Positions 300 to 38,052 of a stretch of DNA of 64,000 bases are shown here, one piece after another. Positions within the stretch are counted from its first letter, which is position 1. The number at the start of each line of letters is the position of its first letter. The notes under the pieces are model-generated. The model did no database searches. It was given only the letters and a program-made list of their open reading frames with translations, and was not told the origin of the DNA. The DNA is taken from positions 10,719 to 74,718 of IMG/VR virus record IMGVR_UViG_3300017912_004409, one strand, 5' to 3'. This stretch comes from a virus. Taxonomy: Duplodnaviria; Caudoviricetes. The position numbers were made by a program, and so were the translations under genes.

Positions 300-516
300 T
301 GGTATCTTCAGACGATACCACGCCTCCATGCTTCGTACCAGGCTCCTGCACAAAAGCACACAGAAAACCAGGAATTATAATCTTCCAAAAGATTTAAATC
401 AAACCATTCCATGAGTAAGTAGAAATGCTTACTCTTTTATTTTGGCGGCATAAATTTAAAGCGATGTGATATAAATTACATTGTTTTTACATCCGCACAA
501 TTATCAATTGTTTGAT

Positions 517-544
517 CGTCCTGAGCATGACGTTAAACTGCTTA
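517..544 (+). promoter_or_regulatory. pseudoknot-type leader element, copy A
   Basis: CGTC-CTGAGCAT-GACG-TTAAAC-TGCTTA. Stem 1 CGTC/GACG; loop TGAGCA can pair with downstream TGCTTA; 20 nt before ATG 565. Confidence 0.6.
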
Positions 545-564
545 CACCCAATCGCTATTTCATT

Positions 565-891
565 ATGACTCATTTCAGTAGCAAAATTGAATACAAGGTC
601 TTAGTCCATGGAGAATGGCAGTATCGATCTGTCTTCTTTGTTACATCCAACCAACTTTACAATTGGTTGTCTGATGATTGGGTTAAGATGGCAAATTCAA
701 AACCTGCTTTGATAATCTCTGTTGCCACCAACAACCCAATTGATTATCCTGACATCGATCCTCAAGATGTCATAGGATACGAGGACCCAACAGGGGACTT
801 GTATTTCTTTGTTGACATCAAACAGGAACATGTTAATTACAAACCTATGAACAAATCCCAATGCGAGACGACATTGAAAACTTCCGTGTAA
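565..891 (+). CDS. hypothetical protein
   Basis: Track ORF 481..891. ATG 565 preferred because the TTG extension runs through the leader element. Confidence 0.65.
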   Translation: MTHFSSKIEYKVLVHGEWQYRSVFFVTSNQLYNWLSDDWVKMANSKPALIISVATNNPIDYPDIDPQDVIGYEDPTGDLYFFVDIKQEHVNYKPMNKSQCETTLKTSV

Positions 892-1028
892 CAAAACTTC
901 CAAGATCAGGTCCCAAGCCTGGACAATCCACTGAGTCTTGGTTAAGACATAGGAAGCATAGCGACGATCAATTCGATGCTATGATTCGTTCCAAACGCAA
1001 ATCAACTATTCAGGATTCAAAACCATGA
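861..1028 (+). CDS. small hypothetical protein (55 aa, MRDDIENFRVTKLPRSGPKPGQSTESW...)
   Basis: Hand-translated ATG 861 to TGA 1028; stop overlaps next ATG (ATGA); below the track length cutoff. Confidence 0.6.
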   Translation: MRDDIENFRVTKLPRSGPKPGQSTESWLRHRKHSDDQFDAMIRSKRKSTIQDSKP

Positions 1029-1222
1029 ACAATTTTCGTTTCCATCGTGAGTTTTTAGGATTTCAAGTTGCCAAAGGTGGCGTAAAATCTTGGTCCAAAA
1101 CTTTTACTTTGCCTTTTGTTCCAGTAAGAATTACTGCGAACATTGATGGCAAAGGCGGTAATGCTACAGTATCCACCCCTTTAATCAAAGGGGCATCTAT
1201 TCGTAACATCAAGTTTTTCTAA
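1025..1222 (+). CDS. small hypothetical protein (weak DUF4236-like look)
   Basis: Track ORF coupled to the upstream stop; Gly/Lys/beta-rich. Confidence 0.6.
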   Translation: MNNFRFHREFLGFQVAKGGVKSWSKTFTLPFVPVRITANIDGKGGNATVSTPLIKGASIRNIKFF

Positions 1223-1224
1223 TC

Positions 1225-1452
1225 ATGGCTTACGAATTAACGATGTCTCTTGAGTTTGATAGTGCAGAAGAATGCTGGGATGCTGCTACAACACAATGGA
1301 AAAAAGCTGAGCGATATATGTCTGCTCATTTGAATGCTGCCAGTGGTGAATATCACTATTACATGAGTGAATATTCACGTTTGATGGCACAGTATCACAA
1401 CCTTAAACATAAAGAATTTAACTCTCAACTTGTTATTCCTTTTCCTAACTAA
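1225..1452 (+). CDS. hypothetical protein
   Basis: Track ORF, tightly packed in operon. Confidence 0.65.
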   Translation: MAYELTMSLEFDSAEECWDAATTQWKKAERYMSAHLNAASGEYHYYMSEYSRLMAQYHNLKHKEFNSQLVIPFPN

Positions 1453-1457
1453 TTCTT

Positions 1458-1733
1458 ATGTCACACTCTATCAACAAAATTATTGATGTCTTTATTGATG
1501 ACAATCAATGTTTCGTTACTGCAGATGTTGAAGACATGGTGCAAGTCACTCCTGGTGATGGCTGGAGTCATCCTCCTCAACCTCCTGAGTATGGTCCTGC
1601 AACTTGCATGGGAAGATTTTGTATTGATGATTATGTGTTACCTTCCGATTTATATGGCCCAGCAATGGAACTCTTATGCGAAAGCATAGACATGGATTGG
1701 GAGGTGGCATCTTCTGCCATCATTGATGATTAA
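1458..1733 (+). CDS. hypothetical acidic protein
   Basis: Track ORF, tightly packed in operon. Confidence 0.65.
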   Translation: MSHSINKIIDVFIDDNQCFVTADVEDMVQVTPGDGWSHPPQPPEYGPATCMGRFCIDDYVLPSDLYGPAMELLCESIDMDWEVASSAIIDD

Positions 1734-1747
1734 TCTTTAACTTATAT

Positions 1748-1779
1748 CACTGGGCATCTTTACAGTGTAAGTCCCAGTG
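1748..1779 (+). promoter_or_regulatory. 28-nt hairpin leader element, copy 1
   Basis: CACTGGG-CATCTTTACAGTGTAAGT-CCCAGTG with a 7-bp perfect stem; core 24/28 identical to 8566..8593; 28 nt before ATG 1808. Confidence 0.55.
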
Positions 1780-1807
1780 TTCTCTTTCCTCTACTATACT
1801 ATTCCAA

Positions 1808-3535
1808 ATGCAATTCCAACTTCCACAAAACCTTCAACAAGCGCTGCTCGATTACGATCCACAGCTTAAGAAGCTTGCGCAACAAGAGCAGACGAAAAAG
1901 AAGCCTAAGAAGAATACAAATCCTTTAGGTGTATTTGATCTTAACATTCCTCATGACATTATTTCACCCGAGGAACTTCAAAATGTCATGAAAGATCTGA
2001 ATGCAAAACCTGCACCAGAAAGAACGTTTTATAAGAATCAACCGGAGCCTGGGTCATGCTATTCATGTCTGGCTATTCTAAATGTCTCTGGTATTTGGTA
2101 TGCCGCTTGGACAGCTCCAAAAGGTGCTAACTATTTCTATGGTTATTCGTTTGCATTCAATGCCAATGAATCAACCTACAAGAAACTTGAAGGATATCTT
2201 AGAACTTATGCAGATCAAAACGAGCCAAACGTTAAGTGTGGTCGTAAATTATTTTATGTGCATTCTCATTGTGTAACTGCGCAAGATATTGTTAACAACA
2301 AACACTCTTGTCGCCGTCTTATTCATGAACCTATGTTAACTTATCGAGACAGTAATAGAGGTTACAAAAATGTTTTCGGCCAGATCAAGCGAGATATTAT
2401 TCAATGTTTGAAAGAAAAGAATTTATATTGGGAAGATGAACTTAATTGGCATGCCAAGATTGTTGCTATATCTAAAACTCCTGTGCAATTTATTCTGGAA
2501 TACCAAGGTCATGACTATAAATTCTTCCAGGGCATAATGCAACAAGCCAACGATATATGTTATGACGTTCCAGATAAAGTTGATATTGATGTTTTATCAT
2601 TCTTACTTAAACACAGATATAAGCATGAGACTTATAACCCTTCTTTTATTCTGGATAAACCTTTCATGAAGCAGTGGTTATCTCAGGCTGCAAATGATAT
2701 CAATAACAATATACATTCCGCAAAATTGAGGAGTAATGTTTTTGTTTCTTATGAGAGACTAAAACGTTTTATACAGTCTTACTGTGTTTTAGAAAGGATT
2801 TGGCCCAACTCTCCTATTGACTTTTATCAGAACAACAAAGAATTACTTTATAGTTTAGACACTTCTTTTCTGCATACTTATAGGTCTGATACTTATGTAA
2901 AAGTTTTTGAATGGCTTAGTGATAACATGTCAATCAAAACTTTTATTAACTTGCTTAGCAAAGAATATGATCTTCATTATGCACGAGCATTACGAAGCGA
3001 CAATACCTTGCGTCCTTATTACAAGTGTGTAAAGATGGATCACTTTGAATTTGTTCCTGAATCAATTAAAGATGCAATGTACATGACAAAAGATATTCTT
3101 AATAAAGATATGAAAATCGATCCACCTAAACGTTGGCGTGATTGGCATGATCATGTAATGTCAATCAGCTGGAAACTAAATCATCCTTGTATTTCATTGC
3201 CTCAGGATTTATTTCCTGAGCCAATCAAACAAGATGGTTATTGTTTCTTCCAGCCTATTGATACTCATCAGCTCGCTAACTGGGGTCGTGCTGTTCGTAA
3301 CTGTGTTGGTAATAGTAATTACTCAGATGCAATTAGAAAGAAGAAATGCTTTATTGTTCTTGCAATGCAAGATAACAAACCTAAATTTACTGTTCAGCTC
3401 AAGGTTGAACGCGGTCTCATGATTGTAGATCAGATTGTTGGTCTTAGTAATTCCAGGTTGTCCGTTGAAGAAAAAGAAATTTATACAAAGACCTTTGCTT
3501 CTGCCCTACAGAAGCGGTCTGAGCAGCTAAACTAA
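1808..3535 (+). CDS. PcfJ-like domain protein
   Basis: C-terminal LANWGRAVRNCVGNSNYSDAIRKKKCFIV...IVDQIVGLSNS matches the PcfJ-like pattern (HCVxxY-type, GxxN). Confidence 0.7.
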   Translation: MQFQLPQNLQQALLDYDPQLKKLAQQEQTKKKPKKNTNPLGVFDLNIPHDIISPEELQNVMKDLNAKPAPERTFYKNQPEPGSCYSCLAILNVSGIWYAAWTAPKGANYFYGYSFAFNANESTYKKLEGYLRTYADQNEPNVKCGRKLFYVHSHCVTAQDIVNNKHSCRRLIHEPMLTYRDSNRGYKNVFGQIKRDIIQCLKEKNLYWEDELNWHAKIVAISKTPVQFILEYQGHDYKFFQGIMQQANDICYDVPDKVDIDVLSFLLKHRYKHETYNPSFILDKPFMKQWLSQAANDINNNIHSAKLRSNVFVSYERLKRFIQSYCVLERIWPNSPIDFYQNNKELLYSLDTSFLHTYRSDTYVKVFEWLSDNMSIKTFINLLSKEYDLHYARALRSDNTLRPYYKCVKMDHFEFVPESIKDAMYMTKDILNKDMKIDPPKRWRDWHDHVMSISWKLNHPCISLPQDLFPEPIKQDGYCFFQPIDTHQLANWGRAVRNCVGNSNYSDAIRKKKCFIVLAMQDNKPKFTVQLKVERGLMIVDQIVGLSNSRLSVEEKEIYTKTFASALQKRSEQLN

Positions 3536-3550
3536 GCCTGCACGTCACCC

Positions 3551-3570
3551 ACCAGGTTCTACCTGGTTTT
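3551..3570 (+). terminator. possible intrinsic terminator / processing hairpin
   Basis: ACCAGG-TTCTA-CCTGGT followed by TTT, between the 3535 stop and tRNA-Leu. Confidence 0.4.
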
Positions 3571-3573
3571 CCT

Positions 3574-3649
3574 CGGCCTGTAGTCCAACGGTAGAGACAG
3601 AGGACTTAAAATCCTTCCAGTGTGAGTTCGAATCTCACCAGGCCGACCA
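3574..3649 (+). tRNA. trnL-UAA: tRNA-Leu(TAA), short variable region, CCA encoded
   Basis: CGGCCTG/CAGGCCG acceptor, A73, CCA; anticodon arm GAGGA-CTTAAAA-TCCTT; T arm GTGAG-TTCGAAT-CTCAC; 76 nt. Confidence 0.9.
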
Positions 3650-3679
3650 ACCACTTTGTTCCCTTTCTATTTCTCAATT

Positions 3680-4060
3680 ATGTCTGTTTTCGATTGCTTC
3701 AAGTCAATTATTCCTCAGCCCCATGGTTACATGGATGACACTGGTCTTTACAATGTTGGTCTGACTTGGATTGACCAAGATGGTTTGACTGATGTCCATA
3801 ATGTTCAGTTGCGTTATGTTCGTAACTCAGAACGTTTGGCAGTTCAATATGGTAAGCCCCAGCCTGATGGTAGCTGGGCTTATACAGAAGCTAACGGAGT
3901 AATTCACACCATGTCTGCCGAGCGTGTCAAAGCATTTATGGAAAAAACTCAAGAACAAGCCACTCTAATGTGTAGTATGCTTGATCGACTTAATGAATCT
4001 GGTCTTGTTGGTGCCATGGTTGATGCAACTGTGGCAGCTGAAGTTCCTGCTGTTTCTTAA
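3680..4060 (+). CDS. hypothetical protein
   Basis: Track ORF 3656..4060; ATG 3680 preferred. Confidence 0.75.
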   Translation: MSVFDCFKSIIPQPHGYMDDTGLYNVGLTWIDQDGLTDVHNVQLRYVRNSERLAVQYGKPQPDGSWAYTEANGVIHTMSAERVKAFMEKTQEQATLMCSMLDRLNESGLVGAMVDATVAAEVPAVS

Positions 4061-4064
4061 TCCA

Positions 4065-4235
4065 ATGGCACGTTTATTTGAAGGTGAAGTAGTGCTTCTT
4101 ATGAGAAGAGCTTGGTCACTGGGATTATTGTCAAGAAAAAATATGGCAACTTTATTTGGTTGTTCTGAAGATACAATATATCGATATTGTCTAGGTGTCA
4201 AAAGGAAACATAAATACCATAAATACCAAGATTAA
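4065..4235 (+). CDS. small helix-turn-helix protein
   Basis: SRKNMATLFGCSEDTIYRY is an HTH pattern; ATG 4065 within track ORF 3981..4235. Confidence 0.6.
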   Translation: MARLFEGEVVLLMRRAWSLGLLSRKNMATLFGCSEDTIYRYCLGVKRKHKYHKYQD

Positions 4236-4243
4236 ATTACAAG

Positions 4244-4275
4244 GCCAGGGTGTTATCAATTCACCCTGGCTTTTT
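4244..4275 (+). terminator. intrinsic terminator
   Basis: GCCAGGGTG-9 nt loop-CACCCTGGC followed by TTTTT, right after a stop codon. Confidence 0.8.
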
Positions 4276-4316
4276 ATTATTTATTAGTTATAATAATTAT
4301 TAACTAACCAATTCAA

Positions 4317-4544
4317 ATGGACCCTTTAGAAATCGAGCGTAAAATCGCAGATGATAAATGGCCTTTGTTTAAAAAGCGTGCAGTTGAACAAATAACAGAT
4401 CAACTGCCACAACAGTTGTTAATGACTATTGTTGATATTACTTTAAATAATTATTATGATGATTTTCCACATGAACTAGTACCGGATTATTTGGACTACT
4501 GTGGTGAGCCCGCAGTTTTAAGAGAACTAAAAGACTGCCAATAG
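4317..4544 (+). CDS. hypothetical protein
   Basis: Track ORF. Confidence 0.65.
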   Translation: MDPLEIERKIADDKWPLFKKRAVEQITDQLPQQLLMTIVDITLNNYYDDFPHELVPDYLDYCGEPAVLRELKDCQ

Positions 4545-4609
4545 TTACTTGCAAAGGGTTGAAAGCCATAAACCATAGGCTATACTACCTACGTAATTCA
4601 ACTTTTATT

Positions 4610-5071
4610 ATGGAAGAACAAACTGTCACTTACAAGGACAAGAAAACAGGCCGAGCTAAAACCTATCACATTGAACGCTTGCCGTGTCCTAAATGCAAAT
4701 GCCTTGATACTAAAGTTTGGGCTTGTGCAATTAGCAGTAAGAAAAAGGTTTTGATTAAATTTTATAATTGCAGAAAATGTGGATATGAATATACAACCAA
4801 AGAGCACGAATACCTTCCAAAGGGACCCGATGAAAATTTAAAAGGTTCAATGAATATCAGTGCTAAATTAAACGAAGAAAAGGTGCGAGAGATACGTTTA
4901 ACTTATCAACACTTTAGTGAAATCTTAAGTGCTAAACAAACCAGAACTAGTCCTACAGAAAAGGATGGTGCTTTATATCAAACAATTAAAGAATTAAAAC
5001 TTGAGCACCTTAGCAAAGATACTATCAAGCGTGTTATTAAATATAAAACATGGAAACATGTGACAGTTTAA
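4610..5071 (+). CDS. Zn-ribbon plus HTH DNA-binding protein
   Basis: CPKC...CRKC ribbon (NrdR N-terminus-like), then SAKLNEEKVREIR...TIKRVIKYKTWKHV, the HTH tail typical of HNH endonucleases; ATG 4610. Confidence 0.6.
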   Translation: MEEQTVTYKDKKTGRAKTYHIERLPCPKCKCLDTKVWACAISSKKKVLIKFYNCRKCGYEYTTKEHEYLPKGPDENLKGSMNISAKLNEEKVREIRLTYQHFSEILSAKQTRTSPTEKDGALYQTIKELKLEHLSKDTIKRVIKYKTWKHVTV

Positions 5072-5302
5072 ATGAAACTAGAACATTTTTACATTAAAGA
5101 TTCTTTGTGGATTGAACGTCAGCAAGATAAAGATGGGGCCATTTCATTTATTGCATGGAGGCCCCATCAATCCAGGGTTTTTACTGATGAGAAAGCACTT
5201 CTTAAATTCTGTAAATGGCCAATCAAAACTCCTACTGGAGACAAAATACGTGAATGGCTAAATGAATTCAAGAAGCCAGTTCATTTACCTGATAGCAAAT
5301 GA
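5072..5302 (+). CDS. hypothetical protein
   Basis: Track ORF directly after the preceding stop. Confidence 0.65.
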   Translation: MKLEHFYIKDSLWIERQQDKDGAISFIAWRPHQSRVFTDEKALLKFCKWPIKTPTGDKIREWLNEFKKPVHLPDSK

Positions 5303-5433
5303 TTAAAATCATGTGCTGTTTCTTTTTCTCTGCGTTCTTGCTGTTGTTTTTGTTTCATCAGATAAGCAATGAGAACAGAATCCATTCGGTTTACACCCCC
5401 GTCGTAAGGAACTCCCCTGTATACAAGATTCAT
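5281..5433 (-). CDS. DUF4278-like small protein (50 aa)
   Basis: Hand-translated MNLVYRGVPYDGGVNRMDSVLIAYLMKQKQQQERREKETAHDFNHLLSGK; the N-terminal LxYRGVxY is the DUF4278 signature; not in track. Confidence 0.6.
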   Translation of the reverse strand: MNLVYRGVPYDGGVNRMDSVLIAYLMKQKQQQERREKETAHDFNHLLSGK

Positions 5434-5438
5434 TTTTT

Positions 5439-5452
5439 GTATCAAATACTAC
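5439..5452. promoter_or_regulatory. possible NtcA box
   Basis: GTA-TCAAATAC-TAC = GTA-N8-TAC, 5 nt upstream of the DUF4278-like start; the motif is short and common in AT-rich DNA. Confidence 0.3.
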
Positions 5453-5501
5453 GGAAATATACTACACAATAGTATTTTATTTTGTAGTTCATATTGATAC
5501 A

Positions 5502-5531
5502 AACGACCTGGGATGTCGTTAAACTCATCCA
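5502..5531 (+). promoter_or_regulatory. pseudoknot-type leader element, copy B
   Basis: AACGAC-CTGGGAT-GTCGTT-AAACTCATCCA; 6-bp stem 1; loop TGGG pairs with TCCA; 21 nt before ATG 5553. Confidence 0.6.
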
Positions 5532-5552
5532 TTTCCAACTGCAACTCGACTT

Positions 5553-6320
5553 ATGTCTTCCCTTCTCAAGTTCAGCAAAGGCAACGCTAAACTCAGCAAG
5601 CGATTGATTTTCAATCTGCCATCTGGTTTCACTTGTCCTTTTGCAAAGTCTTGTCGAACATTTTCTGATCCTAAAACAGGAAAGATTACTGATGCCCAAA
5701 GGGGTGATGATCAAAATATCTTTCGTTGTTTTTCAGCTAGCTCTGAAGCTCGTTCGCCTTCTGCAAGAGCTTTACGTTGGCACAACTACGATTTATTGCG
5801 TAAAGAGAATGTGTACTCCATGCGGGATCTAATTGTTCAATCAATTCTCGCTGCTGGCAAAATGTTTAGTTCAGAAGGACTGTGTCGCATCCATGAGTCT
5901 GGTGATTTCTTTAGTCAGGATTACATGCATGCTTGGTTCTTAGTTGCAACTCAGTTCCCCAATATGAAATTCTATGCTTATACCAAAAGTTTGGATTATT
6001 GGTTTAATATGTATTGTCATATTCCTAGTAATTTATATTTAACTGCATCCCGTGGAGGTGCCTTAGATTATATGATTGATAAGTTTCCAGATATCTTTTA
6101 TCGTTATTCTCAAGTTGTTTATACTCAGCAAGAAGCAGATAGTCTAGGTTTAGAAGTTGATCATGATGATAGTCATTGCTTTGTTAATAAACCATTCGCT
6201 TTACTTGTTCATGGCACTCAACCAGCTGGTTCAATAGCTTCTCAACATCTTGCTCGTCGTAAAAAACAAGGAGATTGGACAGGATATAAAAATAAAAGTT
6301 CTAAACTTGTTGCAAAATAA
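5553..6320 (+). CDS. GP88-family protein
   Basis: NLPSGFTCPFAKSC...CFSAS...RIHESGDFFSQDY...FYAYTKS pattern of the phage gene product 88 family. Confidence 0.7.
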   Translation: MSSLLKFSKGNAKLSKRLIFNLPSGFTCPFAKSCRTFSDPKTGKITDAQRGDDQNIFRCFSASSEARSPSARALRWHNYDLLRKENVYSMRDLIVQSILAAGKMFSSEGLCRIHESGDFFSQDYMHAWFLVATQFPNMKFYAYTKSLDYWFNMYCHIPSNLYLTASRGGALDYMIDKFPDIFYRYSQVVYTQQEADSLGLEVDHDDSHCFVNKPFALLVHGTQPAGSIASQHLARRKKQGDWTGYKNKSSKLVAK

Positions 6321-6346
6321 ATAAAATTAGTTACTATCTAAAGTGA

Positions 6347-6382
6347 TTGGCTCCCCCCGAACCCCCCTGGGGGGAGTACCAA
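6347..6382 (+). other. GC homopolymer hairpin
   Basis: TTGG-CTCCCCCC-GAACCCCCCT-GGGGGGAG-TA-CCAA in an AT-rich intergenic region. Confidence 0.5.
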
Positions 6383-6409
6383 GAGAAAACCATTAGTGTT
6401 ATCAACAAC

Positions 6410-6643
6410 ATGTCATATGTAATCACCTGCATTATTGATGGTGTTCCCCATGGTGTTAAAGCCAATCAATCTTTAAAGAAGTTTGAACTTATGCCAATTC
6501 ATTCTGATACTGATGTTTCTAAAATTGTTTCACATCCACATAGAAATGGAATTAATGATCTATTAGACTGGATCAAACAAAATGATGCTGAGTTGGCCAA
6601 ACATGGCCTTAAGGTTAAAGATGAGCAACTCTACAGAAAATAG
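6410..6643 (+). CDS. hypothetical protein
   Basis: Track ORF 6347..6643; ATG 6410 preferred because the upstream part is the hairpin. Confidence 0.6.
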   Translation: MSYVITCIIDGVPHGVKANQSLKKFELMPIHSDTDVSKIVSHPHRNGINDLLDWIKQNDAELAKHGLKVKDEQLYRK

Positions 6644-8486
6644 TGTAAAACATTCTGTTTTTACTTCTGTTCCAACTAAAGGGAACTGGTTTGTTTTTGA
6701 CCTTGAAACCAACGGGCTTTATAAAGATGTTAAAGAAATCTTTTGTTTGGTTATCTACGATATCATCAGAGACAAAACTATTGTTTATCGGCCTGATACT
6801 ATTGTTGATGGTCTTAAACATTTGGCTACCGCTGATGTTTTAATAGGACACAATATATTGTTTTATGACATTCCAGTCATCAATAAGCTCTATCCAAATG
6901 TTAGTTTAGAAAATATTCATATCATTGATACTCTTGTTTGCACAAGATTGATATGGCCTAAAGAAGAACTTGAAACTCTAGATGAAGAAATTTATCCTGA
7001 TGTCCCACCAAAATTTAAAGGTTCTGCATCTTTAAAAGCATGGGGTTATCGATTATCTGACAATAAAATTGACTTCAAAGATTTTAGTTGCTGGTCTCCA
7101 GAGATGGAAACTTATTGTATTCAAGATGTTAATGTTACTAAAAAATTATTTGATCATATAAATGTAAAACAATATCCTCAAGCTTCATTGTATCTAGAAC
7201 ATCAATTTGCTATTGCAATAAGCAAACAAATTGTTTCTGGTTTTTCTTTTGATTTAGATGCTGCCTTAGATTTAGTTGATGTTTTAAATAACAAGAAAAA
7301 AGAATTAGAAGATCAGCTGCAACTTGCGTTTCCACCTATTGTCGAAGAAACTGTATTTGTTCCTAAAGTAAACAATAAAGCAAAAAACTATATTAAAGAT
7401 GTACCTTTTACAAAGAAAAGAGAAATCAAATTTAATCCTGGATCCAGGCAACAAACTGTAGAAAGATTATTTCAAAAATATAATTGGAGGCCTGAAGTTA
7501 AAACTAAAAAAGGAAATCCAATACTTAATGATGATGTTTTAGAATCTTTGCCATTTCCAGAAGCAAAACTTTTGGCTGAATACCAATTAGTTAAAAAACG
7601 TTTGGGGCAAATCAATGAAGGCAACAATGCATGGACTAAATTAGTTTGCCCAGAAGATGGCAAGATACATGGTGATGTGATTACAAATGGTTGTATTACA
7701 GGGCGCTGCGCTCATAGAAATCCTAATATGGGTCAAGTGCCAGCAGTCTACAGTTCGTACGGAAAAGAATGTAGATCTTTATTTCATGCACCTAAAGATT
7801 ATGTATTGATTGGTGTAGATGCTAAAGCTTTAGAGTTACGTTGTTTAGCTGGTTATTTATCTTATTGGGACAACGGCAAATATGGATCTGTTGTAATAGA
7901 TCCTGAACAAGATATTCATGTCTATAATCAAAAACTATTTAATGTTGAAACTAGAGACATAGCAAAAAGATTATTGTATGGAATCTTGTATGGTTGTGGT
8001 GCATCCAAGGCAGGTTCAATTGTTGATCCCAATTGCAAAAATTTACAACAACAAAAACAACTAGGACGTAATGCTATTAATTCTTTTATGAAGGGCGTTC
8101 CAGCTTTACAAGAATTAAAAAATCAAATTGAAGTGTGTATTAATCAACGTGGTTATTTAATTGGATTAGATCGTAGACAATTATTTTGTAGAGCTGCTTT
8201 CAAAGGATTAAATGTTTTATTGCAATCAGCTGGCGCAATTATTATGAAACAAGTTGTTGTAAATCTACATAAACAACTTGAATCTTGTGGTCTTATTTAT
8301 GACCAAGATTGGATGCAAGTTGCAATGATTCATGATGAAATTCAACTAGCATGCCGCCCAAATTGTCAAGAGATTGTTAAAGAACAAGCATTAAAAGCAT
8401 TTCCGAAAGCTCAAGAGTTTTTTAAATTTGGTTGTTTAATCGAAGGAGATGCAAAAATCGGATATACTTGGCTCGACTGCCATTAA
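6621..8486 (+). CDS. DNA polymerase, family A, T7-like, with 3'-5' exonuclease
   Basis: ExoI VFDLETNG, ExoII GHNILFYD, ExoIII YCIQDV, motif A GVDAKALELRCLA, motif B AKRLLYGILYG, motif C MIHDEIQ; start at ATG 6621 preferred over track start 6582. Confidence 0.95.
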   Translation: MSNSTENSVKHSVFTSVPTKGNWFVFDLETNGLYKDVKEIFCLVIYDIIRDKTIVYRPDTIVDGLKHLATADVLIGHNILFYDIPVINKLYPNVSLENIHIIDTLVCTRLIWPKEELETLDEEIYPDVPPKFKGSASLKAWGYRLSDNKIDFKDFSCWSPEMETYCIQDVNVTKKLFDHINVKQYPQASLYLEHQFAIAISKQIVSGFSFDLDAALDLVDVLNNKKKELEDQLQLAFPPIVEETVFVPKVNNKAKNYIKDVPFTKKREIKFNPGSRQQTVERLFQKYNWRPEVKTKKGNPILNDDVLESLPFPEAKLLAEYQLVKKRLGQINEGNNAWTKLVCPEDGKIHGDVITNGCITGRCAHRNPNMGQVPAVYSSYGKECRSLFHAPKDYVLIGVDAKALELRCLAGYLSYWDNGKYGSVVIDPEQDIHVYNQKLFNVETRDIAKRLLYGILYGCGASKAGSIVDPNCKNLQQQKQLGRNAINSFMKGVPALQELKNQIEVCINQRGYLIGLDRRQLFCRAAFKGLNVLLQSAGAIIMKQVVVNLHKQLESCGLIYDQDWMQVAMIHDEIQLACRPNCQEIVKEQALKAFPKAQEFFKFGCLIEGDAKIGYTWLDCH

Positions 8487-8487
8487 T

Positions 8488-8560
8488 GCTTCCTTAGCTC
8501 AGTGGATAGAGCAACCGCCTTCTAAGCGGTTGGTCGTTGGTTCGAATCCAACAGGAAGCG
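8488..8560 (+). tRNA. trnR-UCU: tRNA-Arg(TCT)
   Basis: GCTTCCT/AGGAAGC acceptor, GCTC/GAGC D arm, ACCGC-CTTCTAA-GCGGT anticodon arm, GTTGG-TTCGAAT-CCAAC T arm; CCA not encoded. Confidence 0.95.
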
Positions 8561-8565
8561 TTTGT

Positions 8566-8593
8566 CTGGGCATCTGAAAAGTGTAAGCCCCAG
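8566..8593 (+). promoter_or_regulatory. 28-nt hairpin leader element, copy 2
   Basis: CTGGG-CATCTGAAAAGTGTAAGC-CCCAG; 24/28 identical to 1750..1777; 21 nt before ATG 8615. Confidence 0.55.
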
Positions 8594-8614
8594 GTTGTTC
8601 TTTGTTTTCTAATC

Positions 8615-9394
8615 ATGGCTATTAATTCTTGTGATTTCAAACTACGTTTGGTAGATAAACCTAAACAAGTTTATATATCAGAAAGAAACTGTGCAGTTCA
8701 AGCAACTGCAATAATCCCTGCTCCTTATGATAAAGCAGTAAATACAGAAGTTAAATTAATTTATAGAGGTCCTCAAACTGCAAGAATACTTTCGTATGAA
8801 CCTGGTAATTATTTGTTTGCTTGTGATACAACACTACGACATGAATATGACAAACTAACTAAAACAGATTCTTGGCGGTTGGTTACTTACAATCCCATTG
8901 AATTAGTAGATGAGAATTTTTGTCCATACAACAATGTAATTCTATTTGGAAGAATAGCTAAAGACATTGATCCAAACAATTCCATGGATCTTAAATATAT
9001 TAATGATTTGATTATTTGTAATCGTCCAATCGTATGTAGTGTTGGTCCACAGCAGGGTGAATTTTTCAATATATTTGCAGTTACTAAAGTGGATTCTCCT
9101 GGTTATAATCTTGCACAGAATCTAGCTGATCAATATACCAAAGGAACTAATGTTGTAATTAAAGGTACATTGGTAACTGATGGGTGGATTGATAAAAATA
9201 CTAAAGAGCAAAGGACAAATACTAAAATCAAACTGTTAAGTATTAATAAAGCATATGTAAACAATGACAATAGTGCTGTCAATGCTTATGTGAACAACAA
9301 GAAACAAGAGGCTGCATCTGAGCCGGTTACCATGACAGCAGGTACAATGCCTGCGTGGTCGCCCACCCAATCCAATGACGAGGTTCCTTTCTGA
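8615..9394 (+). CDS. ssb: single-stranded DNA-binding protein, apparently two OB folds
   Basis: VILFGRIAKD...VVIKGTLVTDGWIDKNTKEQRTNTKIKL is an SSB OB-fold pattern; acidic C-terminal tail DEVPF; the track start 8537 overlaps the tRNA and was rejected. Confidence 0.75.
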   Translation: MAINSCDFKLRLVDKPKQVYISERNCAVQATAIIPAPYDKAVNTEVKLIYRGPQTARILSYEPGNYLFACDTTLRHEYDKLTKTDSWRLVTYNPIELVDENFCPYNNVILFGRIAKDIDPNNSMDLKYINDLIICNRPIVCSVGPQQGEFFNIFAVTKVDSPGYNLAQNLADQYTKGTNVVIKGTLVTDGWIDKNTKEQRTNTKIKLLSINKAYVNNDNSAVNAYVNNKKQEAASEPVTMTAGTMPAWSPTQSNDEVPF

Positions 9395-9579
9395 TGTCTG
9401 ATTATCCGTTCACTTACCTCTATGAGGAAGATGAAAAAAAAGTCTATGTATCATGTGGTTCAGCAGATTTAACTATTGTTTTGCATAATTACATGGACTT
9501 TCTCAAAGCTGTTGGTTATGACTATATAGATATAGTCCAAGAGCTAAAAGTACTTGCTTTTGAAAAGGCGGCCAAGTAA
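9394..9579 (+). CDS. hypothetical protein
   Basis: Track ORF coupled to the ssb stop. Confidence 0.6.
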   Translation: MSDYPFTYLYEEDEKKVYVSCGSADLTIVLHNYMDFLKAVGYDYIDIVQELKVLAFEKAAK

Positions 9580-9603
9580 TTCAGCTTTGTAACGATTGAT
9601 TCA

Positions 9604-9633
9604 GGGACCTGGGATGTCCCAATAAAAGCACCA
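9604..9633 (+). promoter_or_regulatory. pseudoknot-type leader element, copy D
   Basis: GGGAC-CTGGGAT-GTCCC-AATAAAAGCACCA; same loop as copy B with a compensated stem; loop TGG pairs with CCA; 26 nt before ATG 9660. Confidence 0.5.
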
Positions 9634-9659
9634 CTTAACATCTTTTGAACATCATTTAA

Positions 9660-10760
9660 ATGAAAACCAGCGAAGGTCTCATTCCCGCAACCACTGGCAA
9701 AGCAATTGTCAAACGTACACCTCGTACTGTTGATAGCTTTGCTCATCTGGTAACACCAGAATACATTGGTCAGGCTCCCAAGCTTGGTCAAGTTATTGCT
9801 ATCAATGCGCCTAGCGATGACAACTATCCTGCATCTAAATCTGGTTTCTTCTTATCAGAAGAACACTTTCTTAGTGCTGGATGGAATTGTGGTTTAGATG
9901 AACTAGAAAAAGGTAGCTTTCTGCAGCCTTATGTTCAACAACTAGGTTCTTCTGAACACAAAGGTATTATGTTCTTGCGTCCACGGATGCAGATTGTTTT
10001 TGAAACTGATGCTATCTTTGAAGAAAGAGAAGATAAAATCACAACTATTATTGGATCCGGAAATCGAAATGATAATGTAAATGACCTCGGACGTGTAAAC
10101 TATCTTTGGGAATATTACGACACCAATAAAAATAAAAAGGATCTAACAATTCGTTGTTGGTATTATTTCTACTTCATGACAAGTGAAGGTTATCGTGCTC
10201 ACACTAATCCATTAATTCTTTCTATTAAAGGTGTTACCAATGCAACGTTTAGAGAAAATCTTAGAAGGTTTCGCGACGATATGGCATCTTGCACAGCAAT
10301 TGCTCATGGAGAAGCAAAGAAACCTGGAAACTTTGACGCCTTTGGTCAGTACATCTTCACCCCCAGCCTTGCATGTAAGAAAGTTGAAAACTCAACAAAG
10401 GCTTCCACAGCTGTTCAAGTTTTAGAATATGATCAACCTGTTTATTCAAGCAAAGAAGCTGCTATTGCTTCTTTGGATCTAAATGTTATTCCAGATGAAC
10501 TTATGAAGGTAACTAAGAAAGAACAATACGATGAGTTTGCAAGGGGATGTATTTCTCGTTATGGAGATCAGATATCACAATATACACGCATGGCCCCAGG
10601 TGTTCAAATCACTCCTCTTCACATTGAGCCGCCGATGTTAAATGAAAACAATACGAATAAACTTTCTGGATCAGCCCCTACATTACCTAGTCTTCCTGGA
10701 ATTATTGATATTACAGATAAGAGAGATCCTAATACAGGAGAAGATTCAAGTCTCTTGTAA
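9660..10760 (+). CDS. DUF5895-like protein
   Basis: GFFLS...AGW...RPRMQIV...HTNPLILSIKG...F...FTPSL resembles my recollection of cyanobacterial DUF5895; adjacent to ssb. Confidence 0.45.
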   Translation: MKTSEGLIPATTGKAIVKRTPRTVDSFAHLVTPEYIGQAPKLGQVIAINAPSDDNYPASKSGFFLSEEHFLSAGWNCGLDELEKGSFLQPYVQQLGSSEHKGIMFLRPRMQIVFETDAIFEEREDKITTIIGSGNRNDNVNDLGRVNYLWEYYDTNKNKKDLTIRCWYYFYFMTSEGYRAHTNPLILSIKGVTNATFRENLRRFRDDMASCTAIAHGEAKKPGNFDAFGQYIFTPSLACKKVENSTKASTAVQVLEYDQPVYSSKEAAIASLDLNVIPDELMKVTKKEQYDEFARGCISRYGDQISQYTRMAPGVQITPLHIEPPMLNENNTNKLSGSAPTLPSLPGIIDITDKRDPNTGEDSSLL

Positions 10761-11012
10761 TTAGATTTCAGGATTATCAAGCTCGCTATCTGGAATTTTT
10801 ATATTCTTGGTAGCGAGCAATTCTTTTACTAATCCTCTAATACAACCTTGTCTTTGAGTAGCAAGCTGTAATAACAGCTCAGCATATTCTTTAACATTAT
10901 TTATTGAACTTTCTTCTTTAATGGCTCGTGAGATTTTTTCTTTCCAAAAAAGATCACTTGTTGTTGGAGATAATTCTAGCTTTTTCAAAGAAGATTTAAA
11001 TACAAATTCCAT
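10761..11012 (-). CDS. divergent NblA-like protein (second candidate)
   Basis: SDLFWKEKISRAIKEESSINNVKEYAELLLQLATQRQGCIRGLVK aligns by eye with the NblA helix-loop-helix pattern (F...S.DQAKDFL..L......R.....LLK). Confidence 0.4.
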   Translation of the reverse strand: MEFVFKSSLKKLELSPTTSDLFWKEKISRAIKEESSINNVKEYAELLLQLATQRQGCIRGLVKELLATKNIKIPDSELDNPEI

Positions 11013-11046
11013 AAATCCATTTGAGTTCTATTTAATCTATCACAAA

Positions 11047-11268
11047 ATGATTTCAATGAAACCCCATTCTTCTTCCACTAAAATCAAAAAATCAATTAAG
11101 AAAACAATTCCTTTTGCTGTTCTTGGTACAGCTGTAGCTATTACTATAGGAAATCCAGTGGCATGGGGTGCTCTTGCTTTTGGTTTGTTTCGAATTACTA
11201 AGAGAAACTACAACAGCCTTGATCCCTATGATACGCTTGGCTCAGACGAACAAAGCCTCTTCATCTGA
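11047..11268 (+). CDS. small membrane protein
   Basis: Basic N-terminus, hydrophobic segment IPFAVLGTAVAITIGNPVAWGALAFGLF; ATG 11047 in track ORF 10921..11268. Confidence 0.55.
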   Translation: MISMKPHSSSTKIKKSIKKTIPFAVLGTAVAITIGNPVAWGALAFGLFRITKRNYNSLDPYDTLGSDEQSLFI

Positions 11269-11272
11269 TCAT

Positions 11273-11300
11273 TGACCTGGGAAGTCATTAAACTCATCCG
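11273..11300 (+). promoter_or_regulatory. pseudoknot-type leader element, copy C
   Basis: TGAC-CTGGGAA-GTCA-TTAAACTCATCCG; shares GACCTGGGAWGTC and TTAAACTCATCC with copy B; 23 nt before ATG 11324. Confidence 0.6.
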
Positions 11301-11323: not shown

Positions 11324-12427
11324 ATGCTTTCTGTTCTTGGTAATCCAGCCAATGCTGCACAGTCTCTTATTTATGCTAAAACAAATATAAGAAGAGCTTT
11401 TCCTGATTTTGATGATTCTAATATTTATAAAATGTATCTTACTAATACATTTTTAGGAGTTTTAAAAGATGATGGAGGAATTGAAGAAACATACGATAAA
11501 ACCAAAGTAATAAATGCATTTAAAGAATTTACTACGCGTTGTCCTGATTTCTTTTCTTGTCTTGGTCCTGACTATTTAGGTTGTAGTTGGTGGCGTGATT
11601 GTTCTTATATAGTCTATAAGGGTTGGTATTATCAACATCAAAATTCAAAATCATCTATTGCTGCCCGTGCGCAGAAAATGCTTCATCAATATATTCGTAA
11701 CAATATAAATTATATGCATGCAAAGTATTCTTGTAATTTAGACTTTGCTGACTTTTTAGAAAACACAACTGTTCGTGATGACAATGGTGATGAACAAGAA
11801 ACATCAATTGGTCATTTAGTCGCGCCACATGGATTTAAGTATCCTGGAGATACAGAAGAAAAACCCTTTAATCAAACATATTGCAATCCAGAACTCATTG
11901 CTGTACCAGGGCCTGATAAACCTTTTTGTTCTTGTGCTTCATTTCAATATCAACTTAAAAACCTAAGTTATTTTCAAGATGAAATTCCTGACTATCAACC
12001 AACGTGTAAACACTTAACTTGGTACAACAAACATATTGAGTATTACTGTAAACGCACTAAACTTGCAGAACAAATAAGAGCAGGAAAAGCTCCTAACAAA
12101 GCAGTGGCCTGGTGGTATGCTCCTCCTGGTAGTGATCTAGAACATACACTAGAAAAGCTTTCTATAGATCGACCACGGCACATGAAGGGACAGGGAGACT
12201 TTGTAATGTTATATACCAATGATGCCATGGGGTCCAGTGCGCCCTATAAACTCTGGAAGCGGTACAAGCCTCAGGAGTTTTTTACACAGCATGATGTATG
12301 GGACTTGTTTGATCGCATGATTGACAATGGTTATTTACCATACGTAGGTAACAATCTTGGCCAGCTAAAACCTTCTAGTTTTTTTCCTCATCATTCTTGT
12401 CTTTTGAATCTTAAATCACATGTTTGA
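11324..12427 (+). CDS. SWIM zinc-finger protein
   Basis: FCSCASF...PTCKHL = CxC-Xn-CxH SWIM motif. Confidence 0.65.
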   Translation: MLSVLGNPANAAQSLIYAKTNIRRAFPDFDDSNIYKMYLTNTFLGVLKDDGGIEETYDKTKVINAFKEFTTRCPDFFSCLGPDYLGCSWWRDCSYIVYKGWYYQHQNSKSSIAARAQKMLHQYIRNNINYMHAKYSCNLDFADFLENTTVRDDNGDEQETSIGHLVAPHGFKYPGDTEEKPFNQTYCNPELIAVPGPDKPFCSCASFQYQLKNLSYFQDEIPDYQPTCKHLTWYNKHIEYYCKRTKLAEQIRAGKAPNKAVAWWYAPPGSDLEHTLEKLSIDRPRHMKGQGDFVMLYTNDAMGSSAPYKLWKRYKPQEFFTQHDVWDLFDRMIDNGYLPYVGNNLGQLKPSSFFPHHSCLLNLKSHV

Positions 12428-37683: not shown

Positions 37684-38052
37684 ATGAAAACCGATTTATT
37701 TTTAGATGGATATTTAAATGAAAATGGTGATGAGCTAACACGTAGAGCTTTATCTATATGTGATTTTGGTCAGCCTTTAGATAATGAAGAAAATGATGTT
37801 CCGCTCTATGATCAATACAATACGGGTTTAGCTCTTACTGAACAAGGGCGCGAACGTATTAATTTAGCTCTGGAGGGAAATCAATGTCCAATGAAAGCAA
37901 GTCGTCCGGGTGTAACAGGAATTATTCCGAGCATGGAGCAGGGTGTTTTGATGGGAGCAATGCCAATGCCCAGGACTTTAGCAACCATACCTTTAATGGG
38001 TATGCCTGTTCAGGAACAAATGCTTGCCATGCAGCGCCAGGGGAAAATGTAA
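37684..38052 (+). CDS. hypothetical protein
   Basis: Track ORF 37600..38052; ATG 37684. Confidence 0.65.
   Translation: MKTDLFLDGYLNENGDELTRRALSICDFGQPLDNEENDVPLYDQYNTGLALTEQGRERINLALEGNQCPMKASRPGVTGIIPSMEQGVLMGAMPMPRTLATIPLMGMPVQEQMLAMQRQGKM

Follow-up and report, generated by a model that had tools for sequence, protein, structure and literature searches.

Why does a cyanophage carry much the same short structured sequence at four separate gene boundaries? The sequences in question lie in a 64,000-nt stretch of viral DNA (the window), which comprises bases 10719-74718 of a 74.7-kb virus record. The virus is an S-EIV1-like cyanophage, whose DNA polymerase (family A) shares 64% identity with that of Synechococcus phage S-EIV1. 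The + strand of the first 22 kb of the window contains genes for PcfJ-like, GP88, DNA polymerase, SSB, DUF5895, and primase proteins, and the window has three tRNA genes. We found that the four elements are RNA H-type pseudoknots in which both stems covary strongly, and that they are copies of a very widespread phage RNA family that is not private to this phage. As to what they do, our leading but tentative answer is that they may form a barrier or insulator that needs no protein and stands at the 5' edge of whichever cistron or tRNA comes next.

The four copies are listed below. Type I copies have an 8-nt loop and type II copies have a 7-nt loop; stem 1 (S1) is the hairpin stem, and stem 2 (S2) pairs the loop with a segment downstream of the hairpin.

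517..544, + strand: copy A, a type I pseudoknot, with its 8-nt loop at 521-528 (CUGAGCAU)
517-520 with 529-532, + strand: S1 of copy A, CGUC/GACG
533-538, then 522-527 with 539-544, + strand: linker (UUAAAC) and S2 of copy A
5502..5531, + strand: copy B, a type II pseudoknot with the 7-nt loop CUGGGAU
5502-5507 with 5515-5520, + strand: S1 of copy B, AACGAC/GUCGUU
5521-5527, then 5509-5512 with 5528-5531, + strand: linker (AAACUCA) and S2 of copy B
9604..9633, + strand: copy D, a type II pseudoknot of the AAAAGCACCA subtype, with its loop at 9609-9615
9604-9608 with 9616-9620, + strand: S1 of copy D, GGGAC/GUCCC
11273..11300, + strand: copy C, a type II pseudoknot with its loop at 11277-11283 (CUGGGAA)
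11273-11276 with 11284-11287, + strand: S1 of copy C, UGAC/GUCA

The original prediction had reported these four elements on this strand with these sequences, and all four are present. S1 keeps its pairing in every copy while its sequence changes, as had been claimed. The proposed pairing between the loop and a downstream segment is also real: S2 has six pairs in copy A (UGAGCA/UGCUUA, including one G-U), four pairs in copies B and C (UGGG with UCCA or UCCG; in copy C, 11278-11281 with 11297-11300, two G-C and two wobble pairs), and just three in copy D (UGG/CCA, 9610-9612 with 9631-9633), which was rightly described as the weakest of the four. The AAAAGCACCA tail of copy D marks a subtype that recurs among the type II matches.

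Each copy ends shortly before an ATG, and no Shine-Dalgarno sequence is visible at any of these start codons, again as had been described. Copy A ends 20 nt ahead of ATG 565, and copy B is separated by 21 nt from ATG 5553 (GP88 family); at the site that is orthologous to copy B, S-EIV1 has a type I copy. Copy D lies 24 nt past the stop codon of the open reading frame (ORF) at 9394-9579 and 26 nt ahead of ATG 9660 (DUF5895). Copy C begins 4 nt after the stop codon at 11266-11268 and ends 23 nt ahead of ATG 11324. The earlier labels of GP88 and DUF5895 for these genes hold up, but the SWIM label for the ORF at 11324-12427 does not: this ORF has no Pfam or PHROG match at E <= 1e-3. Because a terminator-like hairpin with a T-run lies at 413-446 (+ strand), about 70 nt 5' of copy A, copy A heads a new transcription unit, whose promoter could not be identified. 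Further upstream, a tRNA-Met gene (227-299, - strand) shares 95% identity with tRNA genes of two T4-like cyanophages, P-RSM4 and S-TIM4.

To describe the fold we used an alignment of 150 distinct copies, 146 of them from other phages and the remaining four from the window, so that the scores of the window's copies against the resulting covariance model are partly self-matches (49.6 bits for A, 31.1 for B, 19.9 for D, and 25.1 for C; E = 3e-12 to 2e-3 for a 75-kb genome with filters off). Across the whole genome, the model found these four copies and one doubtful fragment on the opposite strand. The fragment (37942-37982, - strand, 17.8 bits; GUCCUGGGCAU ... UGCUCCCA) lies inside overlapping + strand ORFs and has neither the 3' arm of S1 nor the AAA run, and it is probably a chance match or a decayed copy.

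The search behind the 150-copy alignment had fixed only the inner letters of S1 and two letters of the loop, and S2 played no part in it. Across these copies, 82.9% of the pairing cells are paired, as compared to 76.7 ± 0.5% in shuffled alignments (none of 500 reached the observed value) and 24-41% if the partners are slid. The outer S1 pair occurs as all four Watson-Crick types (CG 55, UA 22, AU 19, GC 19) and as UG (16). The middle S1 pair is UA in 133 copies and AU in the other 17; it is never unpaired, and pairing there was not required by the search. Within S2, one pair is AU in 102 copies, GC in 35, and GU in 7, while another is CG in 81, UG in 37, and UA in 16. The matches that were found with the covariance model show compensation at every S2 position (for example, CAAGCA/UGCUUG, UGGACA/UGUCCA, and UGGUCA/UGACCA) as well as additional S1 variants (AUC/GAU and CUC/GAG). 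A structural descriptor found 158 copies in the loci and 0.8 after shuffling. The unpaired positions C10, A16, U17, and UUAAAC are very highly conserved among these 158 copies.

In type II copies, a purine at position 4 of the loop pairs with the second letter after AAACUCA (G-C 30, A-U 11, other 8). We considered other registers for S2 in these copies, with CUCA right after AAA or with GGAUG/CAUCC, but the covariation prefers UGRG paired with the four letters after CUCA. Because the G-U pairs of the sense strand would be C-A mismatches on the opposite strand, the fold belongs to the sense transcript. Thus, the original proposal of an H-type RNA pseudoknot with covariation in both stems, including the S2 pair that is A-U in copy A and G-C in copies B, C, and D, is borne out on large alignments.

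How far does this fold extend beyond one phage? We gathered about 160 copies of type I and about 60 copies of type II, and the family consensus is GUC-CUGRGYAU-GAC-GUUAAACU-GCYCA. These copies are from viral contigs 20-216 kb long, from cultured phages that infect Firmicutes, Actinobacteria, Cyanobacteria, and Proteobacteria, and from genomes or metagenome-assembled genomes (MAGs) of bacteria in many phyla. The element is present many times in S-EIV1 and in two relatives from IMG/VR, with eight copies in a single 20-kb locus. An exact-pattern scan of viral contigs for type I gave at least 117 loci on contigs of 1.4-216 kb, and the longer contigs (20-216 kb) are clearly unrelated among themselves. 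Viral contigs that match the 7-nt-loop pattern are likewise numerous (the listed number is a lower bound).

Short blastn searches found copies or near-variants in cultured phages: in 87 Staphylococcus records, at a site between the head-morphogenesis genes of a Phietavirus; in a Mycobacterium Patiencevirus; in a group of Vibrio phages (a variant); in T4-like cyanophages; and in phages of Lactobacillus, Paracoccus, Rhizobium, Nostoc, Moorella, and a thermophile. In Staphylococcus phage StauST398-3 (20709-20742; L136 1500-1533), the variant knot reads CGAC-CUUAGCAU-GUCG-UUAAACUGCUU and lies between a small gene that follows the portal and minor-head genes and a gene pair that ends in the major head protein. 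This knot is followed by a U-rich tract and a conserved leader of about 50 nt, which is also found in several uncultured contigs. A scan of species-representative genomes found matches in Bacillota, Saccharibacteria, Omnitrophota, Planctomycetota, Desulfobacterota, Bacteroidota, Cyanobacteria, and others. Among the roughly 80 matches listed from that scan, none is named as Enterobacterales, Pseudomonas, or Vibrio, and one is from an unclassified MAG of Pseudomonadota. The idea that the repeats form the private regulon of one phage must be given up, as hundreds of unrelated phages have members of this family, which can also lie immediately 5' of tRNA genes.

A match to a characterized Rfam family would have removed the novelty of the element, as the original prediction recognized. 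In a search of the window against Rfam 15, at both gathering and permissive thresholds (E <= 10), only tRNAs were found, with no match at the copies, and none of the eight copies in the related locus L096 matched; preQ1 and pistol were among the families searched. Literature searches on the core sequence, and on coremin (a viral RNA that we describe below) together with phage, found no description of this element. Nor is there one in the available parts of a survey of 10,006 candidate viral RNAs (PMC10690425) or of a genome-language-model preprint.

Among the gathered copies, we found none inside a long ORF, and 116 of 163 are flanked on both sides by genes that point the same way as the copy. 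In 59 of 158 copies, a stop triplet precedes the S1 core (the G of GUC) by exactly 6 nt, and in another 24 it does so by 7 nt; the background is about 10, and stop triplets are almost never nearer than 6 nt. About 6 nt past the A-site codon lie inside the ribosome's mRNA channel, so the 6-nt mode may be the spot nearest to the stop codon at which a knot escapes being unwound. On the other side, the next start codon falls 19-22 or 26-29 nt after S2, in all three frames. The 30 nt that follow the knot are poor in G (14%) and fold no better than shuffles (-1.7 versus -1.45 kcal/mol, p = 0.77). A tRNA gene begins 1-11 nt downstream of the knot in 14 cases, and a tRNA lies upstream in one. Terminators are not associated with the knots (152 copies have 2 on the upstream side and 2 on the downstream side, a background level), and there is no link to U-tracts. 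A count of 18 copies at operon starts and 6 at operon ends is unreliable, because crude gene calls miss small ORFs with stops 6 nt upstream. We also considered a leader peptide that would start from an AUG within the knot (A16-G18), which we rejected because the starts fall in all frames and type II copies often have no AUG. In copy A, the frame of the AUG within the knot would end in an ATGA overlap with the ORF at 565.

Among known RNAs, several share parts of this design. H-type pseudoknots of the frameshifting type, such as that of the luteovirus BWYV, have short stems and an A-rich third loop. They resemble the phage element in size (about 28 nt), in their short stems and 1-nt first loop, and in having adenines for minor-groove triples; in contrast, the phage element lies outside of coding overlaps, after stop codons and before tRNAs, with no slippery site in front. 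In phage T7, RNase III sites with long hairpins lie between the early genes, and the PeSL cassettes of T4-type phages combine a promoter with a hairpin. Like the phage element, these are repeated structures at the borders of genes in early polycistronic RNAs, and they possibly mark stable units or cassette borders, but the phage element is a 28-nt knot with no promoter and no long duplex. The leader of gene 32 of T4 is also an H-type pseudoknot in the 5' leader of a phage gene. It is, however, a single autoregulatory site that is bound by the gene's own product, whereas the phage element occurs in many copies, before unrelated genes and tRNAs, in unrelated phages.

The closest parallel is coremin (xrRNA-C, where xrRNA is short for exoribonuclease-resistant RNA), which is found in beny-, cucumo-, and many other eukaryotic RNA viruses. 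In coremin (GUCCGAAGACGUUAAACUAC), a hairpin of 3-4 bp carries a YGAD or YGNNAD loop, and the 10-nt spacer contains an essential AACUA; the linker letters are needed for the fold itself, and a second hairpin (hp2, of at least 4 bp, right behind the spacer) is needed to stall Xrn1 (Dilweg et al., PMC6546385). Dilweg et al. also found that loops of 6-8 nt are functional, that CCGAAA-type loops lose resistance, and that coremin blocks scanning ribosomes (PMC10520033). Coremin also induced -1 frameshifting on a reporter expressed in E. coli, and its Watson-Crick variant pairs the loop with the spacer (PMC10321173).

The two elements share a GUC/GAC hairpin of 3-4 bp with a C-G closing pair, a pyrimidine as the first loop letter, and the GUUAAACU linker directly after the hairpin. 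In both, the loop pairs with the 3' part of the linker to form an H-type pseudoknot, loops of 4-8 nt are tolerated, and the sites are intergenic or untranslated, often with several copies. In the 158 descriptor copies, the first hairpin (hp1, 3-5 bp) of coremin is matched by G7-C20 in 147 and by U8-A19 in 145 (A-U in the other 13); C9-G18, whose two letters the descriptor fixed, is present in all 158. The first 8 letters of the coremin spacer (GUUAAACUAC, with A16-A20 essential) are identical to the phage element's (G/N)UUAAACU, in which AAA was a requirement of the search; 135 of 158 copies have C27 and 136 have U28, 22 copies have an AAAAG variant, and the last letters are replaced by the S2 strand. 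In contrast, the loop of the phage element (CUGRGYAU) departs from the coremin rule: its first letter is C and its second letter is U in 148 of 158 copies, not G. The last letter of the loop is U in 143 copies, A in 10, and C in 5, where the coremin rule is "not C." S2 of the phage element has 4-6 Watson-Crick pairs and lies one nucleotide further 3' (from the U of ACU), whereas stem 2 of coremin has 3 pairs or non-canonical contacts. There is also no obligatory hp2: a hairpin follows within 3 nt in just 18 of 158 copies, and downstream folding equals that of shuffles. Finally, the carriers are DNA phages of bacteria, whose hosts have no Xrn1. The Watson-Crick form of coremin (xrRNA-WCC, SPlV5 type), in which loop nt 6-8 form three pairs with spacer nt 18-20, has the same topology as the phage element, whose covariation is strong but whose S2 has 4-6 pairs and begins at the U that corresponds to spacer nt 19. 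Type II copies share AAACUCA with SPlV5, but covariation favors pairing with the next four letters. The phage element thus resembles coremin in its architecture and is at most a candidate member.

What, then, would such a knot do at a gene boundary? The fold and its conservation are established; the steps of the mechanism are what we infer. The element would be transcribed within an early polycistronic RNA and would fold into a compact knot, in which stem 1 has 4 bp, the first loop a single nucleotide, and stem 2 4-6 bp, while the third loop (UUAAAC) is rich in A and probably occupies the minor groove of stem 1. Its place would be the nearest one to the upstream stop codon that still keeps clear of the terminating ribosome, and it would fall just beyond the next initiation footprint, and could therefore stay folded during translation of both flanking genes. 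At that spot, the 5' border of the next cistron or tRNA precursor, it would be a mechanical barrier that requires no protein. Such a barrier might halt decay that depends on a 5' end and arrives from upstream, whether by the 5'-3' exonuclease RNase J or by scanning RNase E. It might also keep the G-poor leader, which has no Shine-Dalgarno sequence, from pairing with upstream sequence. Each gene would thereby become a context-independent expression cassette.

The wide range of hosts argues against a phage-specific protein partner. A flaviviral xrRNA is known to stop bacterial RNase J1 (PMC5760640). We found RNase J above the cut-off in three of five sampled genomes that carry the motif (Synechococcus, Chamaesiphon, and Saccharimonadales); the other two are small MAGs. 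Of the functions offered by the original prediction, a block to 5' exonucleases fits best, while a translation-specific operator or a ligand sensor for these genes is unlikely. Several observations weigh against a barrier. The hp2 hairpin that coremin requires to resist Xrn1 is not found (the 18 of 158 noted above), the loop breaks coremin's YG rule, and S2 is weak in copies B, C, and D. Vibrio is not known to have RNase J, yet a group of Vibrio phages has a variant of the knot. The tight anchoring to stop codons would be explained just as well by a role at the 3' end of the upstream gene.

A further complication is that the knot is not the only element at these boundaries. Two copies of a second element, the bulged hairpin, lie in the window:

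1750..1777, + strand: bulged-hairpin element, CUGGGCAU, a mini-hairpin, then GUAAGUCCCAG; 30 nt before ATG 1808 (PcfJ-like ORF)
8566..8593, + strand: second copy of the bulged-hairpin element, 4 nt after tRNA-Arg (8487-8561) and 21 nt before ATG 8615 (SSB-like ORF)

The bulged hairpin consists of CUGGGCAU, a variable and covarying hairpin (down to CC-GNRA-GG), and then GUAAG(U/C)CCCAG. It shares the loop letters and the stem-2 pairing of the knot, but in a nested, unknotted form. More than 120 viral loci have it; a stop codon lies 3-7 nt in front of it, and an ATG with no Shine-Dalgarno sequence follows after 21-35 nt. There is another one at about 7077-7110 of G000:C1. Relatives carry a pseudoknot at the position of 1750-1777, and S-EIV1 has a pseudoknot at the site that is orthologous to 8566-8593. 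The knot and the bulged hairpin replace each other at orthologous gene boundaries, in both directions. This favors a role as a general gene-boundary module and weakens models that need the knot topology. It therefore also counts against our explanation of a barrier: as an unknotted hairpin with the same CUGGGCAU...CCCAG is found at orthologous sites, the knot topology may not be essential. At the second of these sites, the listed TTG start of the SSB-like ORF (8537) overlaps the tRNA-Arg gene; translation more likely begins at the in-frame ATG at 8615.

Other sequences of this kind were seen nearby. A descriptor scan of the region before the window's start found three more knot-like elements (G000:C1 7020-7050, 9421-9450, and 10233-10262), which the covariance model misses. 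They keep the plan of a hairpin, UAAAC, and a tail, with other loops (CGUC-AAGCUG-GACG-UUAAACG-CAGC once and GGGG-CUGCGCA-UCCU-AUAAA-CGCAG twice). In distant relatives (L008-L013), about 60-110 nt upstream of the GP88 homologues, there is a different, conserved leader with (C)UGGCACAAG, a G+C-rich hairpin, and UAAUCG followed by a UAAUCUUAG-like sequence, which may be another boundary element.

The main rival to a barrier that protects the downstream gene is a role for the upstream gene: as its 3' terminus, the knot would block 3'-5' exonucleases, or it would mark a site where early transcripts are cut. About half of the copies have a stop codon exactly 6-7 nt upstream, the nested variant with its long G+C-rich stems looks like a 3' stabilizer, and where a tRNA begins 1-11 nt downstream, the upstream RNA, once cut by RNase P, would have the knot at its 3' end. 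Against this, copy A and others start transcription units and have no gene in front, neither U-tracts nor terminators are associated with the knots, the spacing to the next start codon is just as tight, and coremin-type folds are known to block enzymes that arrive from the 5' side. We consider this role unlikely, yet it is the strongest of the alternatives.

Less probable again is a binding site for a trans-acting factor, either a phage repressor or activator similar to gene 32 or RegA of T4 or else a host protein, which would co-regulate the genes behind the copies. Such a factor could explain why the unpaired C10, A16, U17, and UUAAAC are so highly conserved, why the unknotted hairpin keeps the same CUGGGCAU and CCCAG letters, and why the element lies 20-29 nt before start codons. 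However, no common set of genes links Staphylococcus Phietavirus, Mycobacterium Patiencevirus, T4-like cyanophages, Vibrio phages, and the MAGs of candidate phyla, and the element also precedes tRNA genes, which are not translated. Furthermore, coremin needs the same linker letters for the fold itself (PMC6546385).

The knot might instead act on the ribosome that finishes the upstream gene, by slowing or securing termination, by preventing reinitiation or sliding, or by promoting recoding; we give this slightly less credence than a trans-acting factor. The 6-nt spacing from stop codon to knot matches the geometry of stimulators of frameshifting and read-through. Coremin promotes -1 frameshifting (PMC10321173) and blocks scanning ribosomes (PMC10520033). 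Action on the ribosome does not account for the copies that have no upstream ORF (copy A) or that precede tRNAs, and there is no set relationship between the frame across the knot and the next gene. Also, compaction alone would give the minimal spacing if the knot must just avoid the ribosome.

We think it very improbable that the element senses a small ligand or cleaves itself as a ribozyme. In size it is similar to the preQ1-I aptamer and to the 5' part of pistol ribozymes, which likewise have a hairpin, an A-rich tail, and pairing between loop and tail. But the copies match no Rfam family, including preQ1 and pistol, and have no P2 and P3 stems as pistol does; several copies per genome precede unrelated genes and tRNAs; and no expression platform was found.

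Least credible of all is the DNA promoter that the original prediction offered as its alternative, with TAAACT as a -10 box or the hairpin as an N4-like promoter for a phage polymerase: TAAACT does fit TAnnnT, TTGAT-like words lie upstream of the four copies in the window, and the sites are upstream of genes or tRNAs, but the spacing from TTGAT to TAAACT varies (16, 18, 20, and 20 nt), G takes the place of the final T in copy D and in 22 of 158 copies, the would-be spacer covaries with the region after the -10 box and uses G-U pairs that are valid on the sense strand only, the upstream gene's stop codon is usually 6 nt away, inside polycistronic units, and the family is common to phages whose hosts have different types of promoters. 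A sigma-70 promoter calls for -35 and -10 hexamers at 16-18 bp, with A2 and T6 of the -10 box invariant. A sigma-70 scan found no site at the copies, which, along with the inconsistent spacing found by hand, led us to reject such a promoter. We rejected an N4-like DNA hairpin because the wobble pairs work on the sense strand only and because the family crosses unrelated phages.

This leaves the protein-independent barrier as the explanation that we prefer, with the reservations given above. A bolder version of it, which we put forward as speculative and rather doubtful, is that these knots would be the first exoribonuclease- and ribosome-resistant RNAs of bacterial viruses. Each would be a protein-free "bulkhead" against RNase J and RNase E that splits a polycistronic RNA into stable cassettes. 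It would be built on the minimal anti-Xrn1 fold of eukaryotic viruses, by convergence or from a very old common design, and it would be one of several interchangeable boundary modules in S-EIV1-like cyanophages.

Whatever its function, the element is among the most widespread uncatalogued structured RNA motifs of phage genomes. It is easily annotated, it marks gene boundaries and start sites with no Shine-Dalgarno sequence, and it is small enough for direct structural work and for use as an insulator part in synthetic biology. If the inferred function is true, then this 28-nt RNA would be a general, protein-free phage tool for message stability and gene-by-gene expression, and it would tie bacterial RNA decay by RNase J and RNase E to the xrRNA concept, which is known only from eukaryotic viruses.

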